Shown piece by piece: positions 19,596-20,277 of a stretch of 21,723 nt of DNA (the first letter of the stretch is position 1; every line of letters begins with the position of its first letter). Under the pieces are notes generated by a model. That model saw nothing but the letters and a program-made list of their open reading frames with translations, did not search any database and was not told the DNA's origin. The stretch lies in the UHGV virus genome UHGV-1576676. One strand, 5' to 3'. The translations under genes were made by a program, and so were the position numbers. The stretch is from a virus.

Positions 19596-20068
19596 ACCGA
19601 CATTGTTTTAACGGATTGACGCGTTACAACCAGGCCGGTGAGTTCAATGTCGGTTACGGGAAGTATAAAACTCCGTATTTCCCATTACAGGAGATGGAAG
19701 CCTTCCTCGGTGCGGAAGGGCGGTCTGAGTTTGTATGCGGTGATTTTGCAGCGGTGATTGAAGCTGCCGGAGAAGGAGATGTCATCTTTTGCGATCCGCC
19801 GTATGAACCGCTTCCAAATACAGAGGGATTCACGAACTATTCCGGTCATGACTTTAAGTTTGAAGAGCAAAAACGCCTGGTGTCTCTGTTGACGGATGCT
19901 CATCGTCGAGGTGCAAAGGTTCTCATTACTAACAGTGGCGCGCCAAACATCAGAGAGCTTTATCATGACAGTGGCTTCAGAGTGGAACCTCTTTTTGCCA
20001 GACGTTCTGTGTCTTGTAAGGGGGACACTCGAGGTGTAGCTCATGACGTTTTGGGTGTATTGCTCTAA
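19565..20068 (+). CDS. dmt: Dmt, part 2: remainder of the Dam-like domain (DPPY catalytic motif) in the -1 frame relative to part 1
   Basis: Frame reads ...[33 protein letters not shown]...CDPPYEPL..., collinear with E. coli Dam ([30 protein letters not shown]...CDPPY); overlaps part 1 by ~30 nt. Confidence 0.75.
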   Translation, partial: FTSRSGVFVLNRHCFNGLTRYNQAGEFNVGYGKYKTPYFPLQEMEAFLGAEGRSEFVCGDFAAVIEAAGEGDVIFCDPPYEPLPNTEGFTNYSGHDFKFEEQKRLVSLLTDAHRRGAKVLITNSGAPNIRELYHDSGFRVEPLFARRSVSCKGDTRGVAHDVLGVLL

Positions 20069-20088
20069 TAAATATATTAGTGTAATAT
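20059..20088 (+). promoter_or_regulatory. C1 operator overlapping a near-consensus sigma70 promoter (TTGCTC, 17 nt, TAATAT); operator spans the dmt stop codon
   Basis: attgctctaataaatat at 20059-20075; -35 at 20060-20065; -10 TAATAT at 20083-20088. Confidence 0.65.
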
Positions 20089-20094
20089 CGCCGC

Positions 20095-20277
20095 AATGAA
20101 TCGTGATTTATAGAGCGATTTAGCTGTTAGCCGCGACAGGCGCGGCGGTAAGCATGGCTGGGCCTAGTCCTCCCAGACAAACCACCGAGTTGCCAGGTTG
20201 ACCATGCGCCTAAGTGGCAACGCCGAAGTGCGTTACGAGCTTCCAGTTTGCCCATCTTCGGGTGGGCGTTTTTTTCA
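20095..20277 (+). ncRNA. Candidate operator-controlled short transcript (~180 nt) between that promoter and a strong intrinsic terminator
   Basis: Predicted start ~20095; internal hairpins (gccgcg-acag-gcgcggc, ctggg...cccag); no ORF above ~15 codons with an RBS. Confidence 0.3.
20250..20277 (+). terminator. Rho-independent terminator with UUCG tetraloop
   Basis: gcccatc-ttcg-ggtgggc stem-loop followed by cgttttttt. Confidence 0.7.

Follow-up and report, generated by a model that had tools for sequence, protein, structure and literature searches.

Leader RNA of the C1-controlled ban operon in a P1-type plasmid prophage and a putative pseudoknotted domain shared with the dicBF locus

What is made from the roughly 180 nucleotides (nt) that lie between an operator for the repressor C1 and the transfer RNA (tRNA) genes of the virus genome UHGV-1576676, a small RNA in its own right or the leader of the genes that follow? 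The window analysed here is the whole 21,723-nt (21.7-kb) stretch of this genome, and the element in question occupies positions 20059–20277, where an initial annotation made from the sequence alone had described an operator-overlapped promoter, a non-coding transcript and an intrinsic terminator. Sequence comparison identified the region as the regulatory 5' end of the C1-controlled ban operon of a P1-type plasmid prophage, a control region that is already known and annotated in phage P1. This finding re-identifies a region that was mapped decades ago and its stakes are modest. The predicted transcript also contains a conserved, terminator-coupled and putatively pseudoknotted RNA domain that has no Rfam family and is newly defined here.

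Identity and anatomy of the control region

The window as a whole is a P1-type plasmid prophage. Positions 19950–20750 shared 99.0–99.4% identity with phage P1 and its close relatives, 95% with P7 and 94.5% with SJ46, and the similarity of phage D6 to the region began at 20247, with nothing matched 5' of that position. Because the P1 GenBank record annotates exactly these bases (P1 coordinates convert to window coordinates by an offset of 17449 up to the terminator T-run and of 17450 beyond it), the region can be equated with the ban operon's known control region and leader. The record labels Oban-ab (formerly Op72ab, 'controls expression of ban'), the promoter P1ban, a predicted promoter P2ban and a 'dicF-like region' that corresponds to window 20183–20285, and the P7 record carries the same C1 operator annotation. 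Synteny with the P1 control region also holds, with the 3' end of dmt upstream and trnA-trnT-tci-ban downstream; the gene order 3' of the leader in the P1 annotation is trnA (Asn), trnT (Thr), tciABC, trnI and ban. The initial annotation had the anatomy right but did not identify it as the known Pban/Op72ab region, in which a 'dicF-like region' is annotated. The elements of the control region and leader are as follows.

20059–20075, plus strand: C1 operator half-site Oban-a (formerly Op72a), ATTGCTCTAATAAATAT, one mismatch to the consensus; annotated in P1 and P7
20070–20086, minus strand: C1 operator half-site Oban-b (formerly Op72b), ATTACACTAATATATTT, three mismatches; annotated in P1 and P7
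20060–20088, plus strand: promoter P1ban, with −35 TTGCTC (20060–20065), a 17-nt spacer and −10 TAATAT (20083–20088); 'sigma 70 promoter P1ban' in P1
20043–20074, plus strand: predicted promoter P2ban, with −35 at 20043–20048 and −10 at 20069–20074; 'predicted' in the P1 GenBank annotation
20097–20122, plus strand: 5' hairpin of the leader (AAUCGUGA...GCGAUU), found in the minimum free energy and centroid folds, free energy −7.0, in P1-type copies only
20123–20247, plus strand: conserved structured domain with a homologous core at 20131–20221, 76% identical to the stretch of the Qin prophage 5' of dicF
20222–20249, plus strand: linker, occupying DicF's place in lambdoid phages, dissimilar to DicF and partly paired in the closing helix P0 of the domain
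20250–20275, plus strand: intrinsic terminator with a 7-bp stem (8 with U20249–G20268), UUCG loop, G and U7

Window and P1 share the locus, the operator position and the promoter hexamers of Oban-ab/P1ban at 99% identity, and differ at three bases between 20040 and 20300. Position 20074 is A in the window and T in P1, so that half-site a is further from the consensus in the window while that of P1 is a perfect consensus; the terminator tail is U7 in the window and U6 in P1, and dmt carries a 1-nt deletion relative to P1.

Comparison of 17-bp asymmetric sites with the C1 consensus ATTGCTCTAATAAATTT retrieved five operator-like sites in the window; 0.08 would be expected by chance, and a count of five did not occur in any of 100 shuffles. 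The operator that had been placed at 20059–20075 was present there, overlapping the promoter, but its inverted partner at 20070–20086 had been overlooked. Oban-ab (20059–20086) is bivalent, consisting of two overlapping half-sites in opposite orientation that cover P1ban. The description of that promoter as near-perfect did not hold, as it matched the sigma 70 consensus at three of six bases in the −35 and four of six in the −10 hexamer (7 of 12 in all, with an ideal spacer) and fell below the threshold of the consensus scan. Judged from spacing only, transcription from P1ban would start at about A20095, and the P1 GenBank annotation suggests that C1 represses this promoter through Oban-ab. 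Other operator-like sites, each with one mismatch, lie at 973–989, 2643–2659 and 16538–16554, the first two flanking the C4/immI region.

The leader is bounded by the terminator at 20250–20275, in which GCCCAUC (20250–20256) pairs with GGUGGGC (20261–20267) around a UUCG loop and is followed by U7 at 20269–20275, with a hairpin free energy of −12.8 kcal/mol. A generic scan gave terminator-like matches in the region no more often than chance (5 found, 4.3 expected), and this site was the sole plus-strand match from 18000 to the end of the window. All relatives keep it, in one variant with a compensating change in the stem, and this bears out the earlier call of a textbook intrinsic terminator about 180 nt downstream of the promoter and upstream of the tRNA genes.

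The conserved domain and its relation to DicF

Most of the leader between its 5' hairpin and the terminator is predicted to fold into the conserved domain, whose elements are listed below.

20123–20126 and 20129–20133 with 20236–20241 and 20244–20247, plus strand: closing helix P0, from RNAfold of P1 and also in the centroid fold
20131–20135 with 20141–20145, plus strand: helix H1
20146–20149 with 20184–20187, plus strand: helix Ha
20158–20162 with 20172–20176, plus strand: helix H3
20189–20195 with 20215–20221, plus strand: helix H4
20152–20157 (GCAUGG, internal-loop strand) with 20202–20207 (CCAUGC, H4 loop), plus strand: loop-loop pseudoknot

Copies of the domain comprised 75 distinct sequences from IMG/VR and more from the genomes of Escherichia albertii, E. 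ruysiae, Shigella, Citrobacter, Trabulsiella, Erwinia and Izhakiella. By blastn, window 20131–20225 had a chromosomal counterpart of 76–79% identity in 4268 of 5426 complete E. coli genomes, so that an RNA domain present in about four of every five such genomes is without an Rfam family. It was also found in lambdoid phages such as mEp460, cdtI and Stx2c phages (blastn E from about 1e-11 to 1e-6). An RNA family search, which the initial annotation had proposed as a check, returned no Rfam family in 20059–20240 at the gathering threshold or at E ≤ 10, and only sub-threshold transfer-messenger RNA (tmRNA) matches in the adjacent module.

Evidence for the fold comes from the pattern of substitution between copies. 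Standard pairs were formed by 96.6% of alignment cells, in comparison to 30–54% when the partners were slid by one to three columns, and five pairs changed on both sides. An alignment-free parse recovered compensatory variants in Ha (CGGU/ACCG to CGGC/GCCG), in the pseudoknot (GUAUGG/CCAUAC to GCAUGG/CCAUGC, with U-G intermediates) and in H4 (GUUGUCA/UGACAAC to GUUGCCA/UGGCAAC to GUAACCA/UGGUUAC to AUUGUCA/UGGCAAU), together with at least six stem variants of H3. This covariation gives the domain structure moderate support.

In each of the 72 distinct downstream sequences (181 instances) a hairpin followed by a T-run lay 42–85 nt 3' of the domain. The segment between the two varied, and was DicF, one of at least four other short RNAs, or the linker of P1 and P7. 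Because the terminator is always present while the intervening sequence varies, the conserved unit is the domain together with the terminator, and its middle is exchangeable.

Two side observations concern variants of the domain. Phage D6 holds a shortened and diverged version about 230 nt upstream of its terminator (about 2235–2290 in locus L005). In lambdoid and other enterobacterial prophages the domain is bracketed by GUUGUGGY...RCYRCAAC (1488–1495 and 1599–1606 in locus L003; also in L259, L261, L265 and L266), a possible closing helix in which U-G to U-A and G-U to G-C changes occurred between Qin and Citrobacter.

The K-12 counterpart of the domain is situated in the Qin prophage between ydfC and dicB and ends about 25 nt before mature DicF. 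Alignment of the domain with the Qin stretch just 5' of DicF gave 74 identical columns of 98 (76%), in comparison to 51 ± 3 for shuffles, while the P1-type segment at the DicF position (20222–20277) matched DicF at 31 of 60 positions, which is the chance level (shuffle mean 31.4). The DicF covariance model (RF00039, threshold 48 bits) had no match in the window even at E ≤ 10, and scored 76.7 bits on the Qin DicF used as control. By these comparisons the 'dicF-like region' of P1 resembles the RNA just 5' of DicF and not DicF itself. The label given to P1 in 2004 is corrected in this sense: the domain that precedes DicF is present and DicF is not.

Target prediction, also proposed in the initial annotation, covered about a quarter of the phage (the 21.7-kb window) and one host gene, ftsZ, and gave no target beyond the range of shuffled sequences. 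On the ftsZ leader the best duplex reached −17.8 kcal/mol, weaker than the shuffle mean, in a restricted RNAduplex search of low power; DicF, the control, regained its known site at −26.7 kcal/mol. Within the window, in a search that was likewise of low power, the linker paired only with its own antisense and in one duplex that lay inside the range of shuffled linkers. A DicF homologue was rejected on the absence of a covariance-model match, the chance-level identity and the lack of detectable ftsZ pairing. The P1 leader RNA is, from its alignments, a positional counterpart of DicF and not a homologue, with no sign of ftsZ targeting, and since P1 is without DicF, blocking of ftsZ through the leader RNA has no sequence support.

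The likeness to the dicBF operon extends to layout. In both loci a homologous domain of about 95 nt with the same fold precedes a short segment and then an intrinsic terminator within a repressor-controlled early operon, and an STnc100-like element occurs further downstream. The loci differ in that P1 is without the DicF body and its ftsZ pairing, and in that the P1 domain stands right at the start of the primary transcript, whereas the Qin domain lies behind three small genes. The STnc100-like element of the window (21468–21595; Rfam 33 bits, gathering threshold 47) is closed by GUUGCGGUG and CACCGCAAC and lies just upstream of tciA; similar elements are found 3' of DicF in Qin (about 1690–1830 in L003) and at the end of the RNA cluster of Klebsiella phage ZX4 (about 1150–1260 in L244). 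Because such an element follows DicF in Qin too, P1 20278–21467 looks like an insertion into a Qin-like arrangement of domain, terminator and STnc100.

Possible roles of the leader RNA

We consider it likely that the region serves as the leader of the ban operon, yielding a short terminated RNA along with read-through transcripts, with the conserved domain acting in cis. C1 bound to Oban-ab would block P1ban, and its inactivation would allow transcription from about 20095. The first 180 nt or so would form a non-coding leader composed of the 5' hairpin, the pseudoknotted domain closed by P0 and the strong terminator. Judging from this anatomy, most polymerases would halt at the terminator and release an RNA of about 175–181 nt with a hairpin-U7 3' end, while some, as the annotated operon requires, would read through into the tag-template RNA described below, tRNA-Asn, tRNA-Thr, tciABC, tRNA-Ile and ban. 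The terminator would in this way attenuate the ban operon and hold its basal expression low, and the domain would act on its own transcript by influencing the position of a cut, stability or the efficiency of termination. The two roles suggested in the initial annotation, a repressor-controlled small RNA or an attenuated leader of the tRNA cluster, both fit the 5' end of a C1-controlled ban operon; the anatomy behind them stood, and the proposal as a whole is supported in part.

The domain probably acts in cis, because it is invariably paired with a terminator and because of the manner in which DicF is produced. RNase E releases the 5' end of DicF from a polycistronic RNA, while the 3' end is generated by the terminator or, after read-through, by RNase III (PMC5069750), from which it follows that termination and read-through coexist at the homologous locus. 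For the ban operon there is also genetic background.

P1 bac-1 operator-constitutive lysogens express ban, and read-through would therefore need no lytic phage protein. P1 would offer a clean test system for the domain, with one promoter under a known repressor and a transcript that carries the domain at its 5' end.

Several observations weigh against the leader reading. The statistical support for the domain is only moderate because its compensatory changes trace to few independent lineages (P1-, P7- and Qin-type copies and a handful from Citrobacter, Izhakiella and Erwinia), and the fold of the whole leader was not significantly more stable than that of shuffled sequences (z = −1.6). D6 retains the terminator and everything downstream of it, with the boundary at 20247, and is without an intact domain, which indicates that the domain is not obligatory for expression of the downstream genes. 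A strong hairpin-U7 terminator also sits oddly with an operon that delivers a replicative helicase, and favours active antitermination over passive leakage. In addition, no expression data were found for the leader RNA, which is not mentioned in two P1vir transcriptome papers; nor was a description of it found in the literature on the 'dicF-like' region and the P1 ban operon.

Alternatively, the terminated RNA could be a trans-acting, Hfq-dependent small RNA released on derepression, a DicF analogue with a different seed for which the 5' domain is a mere precursor or scaffold. The RNA shares with DicF a position between the same domain and a terminator of the same kind, it ends in a hairpin and U7 preceded by UUU, as is usual for small RNAs that bind Hfq (binding here being putative), and the linker is nearly invariant between P1 and P7 although the H3 hairpin is strongly different. 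The H4 loop GGUUGA was invariant in all copies retrieved, but both search patterns demanded it and its invariance is no test of conservation. The absence of similarity to DicF and of a match to its model, the duplex with ftsZ that was weaker than those of shuffles and the window-wide duplex that stayed within their range make this reading unlikely, as does the partial sequestration of the linker in P0; an RNase E cut at AG/UUU, as in DicF, would moreover leave a bare terminator hairpin. Another proposal treats the domain as a processive antiterminator that acts in cis without any protein, like the put RNAs of phage HK022, and modifies the polymerase to ignore the terminator at 20250–20275. Such a role would agree with the constant placement of the domain 42–85 nt 5' of a terminator beyond which needed genes lie (dicB in Qin; the tRNAs, tci and ban in P1), with its standing first among the structured elements of the P1 transcript, 28 nt past the inferred start, with a terminator that looks too strong for passive leakage and with the expression of ban in bac-1 lysogens in the absence of lytic functions. 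The analogy to put is positional only, a structured RNA close behind an early promoter, with terminators beyond it, in a phage that is not known to have an N-like protein: the domain is a pseudoknotted multi-helix structure whereas put RNAs are two stem-loops, and no sequence similarity to HK022 (whose record has no put annotation) was detected, HK022 not being among the blastn matches. D6, which has the terminator and downstream operon but no intact domain, and the terminator of the Qin locus, which demonstrably works and yields the 53-nt DicF (PMC5069750), also speak against antitermination, and we regard it as rather improbable.

Two further readings were rejected. One makes the leader the acceptor (tRNA-like) piece of the adjacent tmRNA-like RNA, that is, half of a two-piece permuted tmRNA, and draws on its location directly upstream of a tag-template RNA without a tRNA-like domain and on a weak Rfam tmRNA_permuted match that begins at 20264 (24 bits, gathering threshold 47). 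ARAGORN found no tmRNA, standard or permuted, even at lowered thresholds (noise only at 70%), and the domain is without a T-arm, a G3:U70 acceptor stem and a CCA end. The two modules are also distributed independently, since thousands of copies of the domain adjoin DicF with no tag module, and T1-like, N4-like and Vi1-like phages have the tag module but not the domain, which leaves the two-piece reading very improbable. The other has the interval encode a small protein, a notion with almost no probability. Open reading frames (ORFs) do cross the roughly 180-nt interval, and some GenBank phage records place a 'hypothetical protein' here, but those on the plus strand reach only 32–33 amino acids from TTG or GTG starts, a single one of 110 amino acids runs on the minus strand, and none has a Pfam or PHROG match. 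All of them cross the T-run, which is T6, T7 or T8 among close relatives, so that the frames are lost from one relative to the next, and the substitutions between lineages are compensatory for RNA helices and not synonymous. The initial judgement that the interval holds no credible ORF was upheld on these grounds, and no small protein conserved in relatives, which it had named as a contrary outcome, was found.

A more far-reaching proposal, which we put forward only tentatively and think unlikely, is that 20123–20247 represents a new family of structured phage RNA, more than mere precursor sequence of DicF, that functions in cis as a protein-independent antitermination or processing switch. 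Such a switch would set the number of polymerases that get beyond the terminator and in P1 would gate a multi-module RNA operon, with the tag-template RNA as its first cargo.

The putative tag-template RNA and other neighbouring elements

The leader terminator is adjoined, on the same transcript, by an unannotated element that lies outside the original finding and is potentially much more interesting than the leader. This element, its further loci and the neighbouring genes are listed below.

20280–20457, plus strand: tmRNA-like tag-template RNA, starting at the conserved GUUUUCGUCA, with a tag frame at 20337–20369 and two tandem pseudoknots at its end
3001–3175 in L004, 1502–1689 in L238, 1495–1673 in L239, 1495–1673 in L240 and 695–873 in L244: further tag-module loci
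20741–20816, plus strand: tRNA-Asn, a downstream member of the ban operon (ARAGORN, Rfam, P1 annotation)
20819–20894, plus strand: tRNA-Thr, likewise a downstream member with the same sources
19616–20068, plus strand: 3' part of dmt (DNA methyltransferase; ORF list, P1 annotation), whose TAA stop at 20066–20068 lies inside the operator

The tag frame reads GCA AAC GAT GAT CTG ATG ATG GTA GCG GCC TAA and would encode ANDDLMMVAA. It has no start codon: neither ATG, GTG nor TTG occurs in frame once the upstream stop is passed. On its 5' side lies ...AAAGUAAAU and on its 3' side a tandem pair of pseudoknots, in each of which the two stems co-vary between phages. The module matched 292 phage GenBank records, where it is almost never annotated and usually lies beside tRNA genes. 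Its hosts include P1-like phages, lambdoid prophages (between Q and the holin gene), an Aeromonas phage, Vi1-like phages (phiEa2809, phiMAM1), N4/G7C-like phages (ECBP1, Pollock, KP8) and T1-like phages (DS8, KFS-SE2, Klebsiella ZX4), the last group having a promoter-like TTGACA-17-TAGATT directly 5' of the module. Tags in other phages read ANDNEFKVAA, ANDNAYLMVA, ANDDVVLMAA and ANEEMYLAVA. Altogether 23 distinct templates specify 11 peptides, and in the last two codons five of seven extra bases fell at third positions.

The resemblance to tmRNA (SsrA) lies in a frame that begins GCA AAC GAY, ends in Ala-Ala-stop and has no start codon, in the A-rich ...AAAU that precedes it and in the tandem pseudoknots that follow. 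The module differs from tmRNA in that ARAGORN, with default as well as relaxed settings, detected no tRNA-like domain either in the window or in 16 homologous loci, and in that its Rfam scores stayed below the gathering thresholds (tmRNA_permuted 24.1 bits, threshold 47; beta_tmRNA 14.1 bits, threshold 84). Similarity to E. coli ssrA was almost nil, blastn against the phage RNA regions yielding, besides an insignificant 11-mer, a single 14-nt T-arm match, in phiEa2809. An exhaustive survey of phage ssrA in 2014 reported the gene only in mycobacteriophages and Bacillus phage G (PMC4131195). No description of a tag-template element was found in the literature on phage tmRNA-like RNAs and tag peptides. 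From its sequence 20280–20457 looks like the mRNA-like part of a tmRNA, with putative translation of its frame; if the RNA really is translated, many enterobacterial phages own a tagging template for ribosome rescue.

Recurrent long hairpins with stems CACAAC-AGGUAAGRGC ... GCYCUUWCC-GUUGUG and variable inserts occur around the tRNA genes at about 20457–20537, 20895–20978 and 21400–21476. The same hairpins were seen at 848–967 and 1071–1155 in L244 and at 1682–1790 and 2023–2118 in L238, and in P1, D6, T1-like and Vi1-like phages their place is 3' of the tag module or of tRNA genes. Some inserts hold T-arm-like hairpins, and GCGGGUUCAACUCC of phiEa2809 is the 14-nt match to the T-arm of E. coli tmRNA. 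These hairpins may be stems for processing or may mark boundaries between modules. An 87-nt tRNA-Ser(UGA)-like gene is present in P7 and D6 (3607–3693 in L005; 2895–2981 in L006), in place of which the window (21374–21397) and P1 show just a GCUCC-ACGAAAC-GGAGC hairpin with CCCGCCGUUA before it; this hairpin recurs in a lambdoid Q-S region (3455–3478 in L004).

The P1 gene plp (putative lipoprotein, 125 amino acids; window 20865–21242, minus strand) is shortened to an ORF of 81 amino acids (20997–21242), and as plp and upl run antisense to the structured hairpin and tRNA region it is doubtful whether they are real genes. Upstream of the operator, dmt is split into ORFs 17805–19595 and 19616–20068 by a 1-nt deletion in a T-run (about 19589), either a frameshift or a sequencing error, in comparison to the single 754-amino-acid Dmt of P1. 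Elsewhere in the window, 4570–4744 matched the sok antitoxin RNA (114 bits), implying an addiction module of the hok/sok type; we know of no such module in P1 itself. The C4 antisense RNA and its targets lie at 1050–1256.

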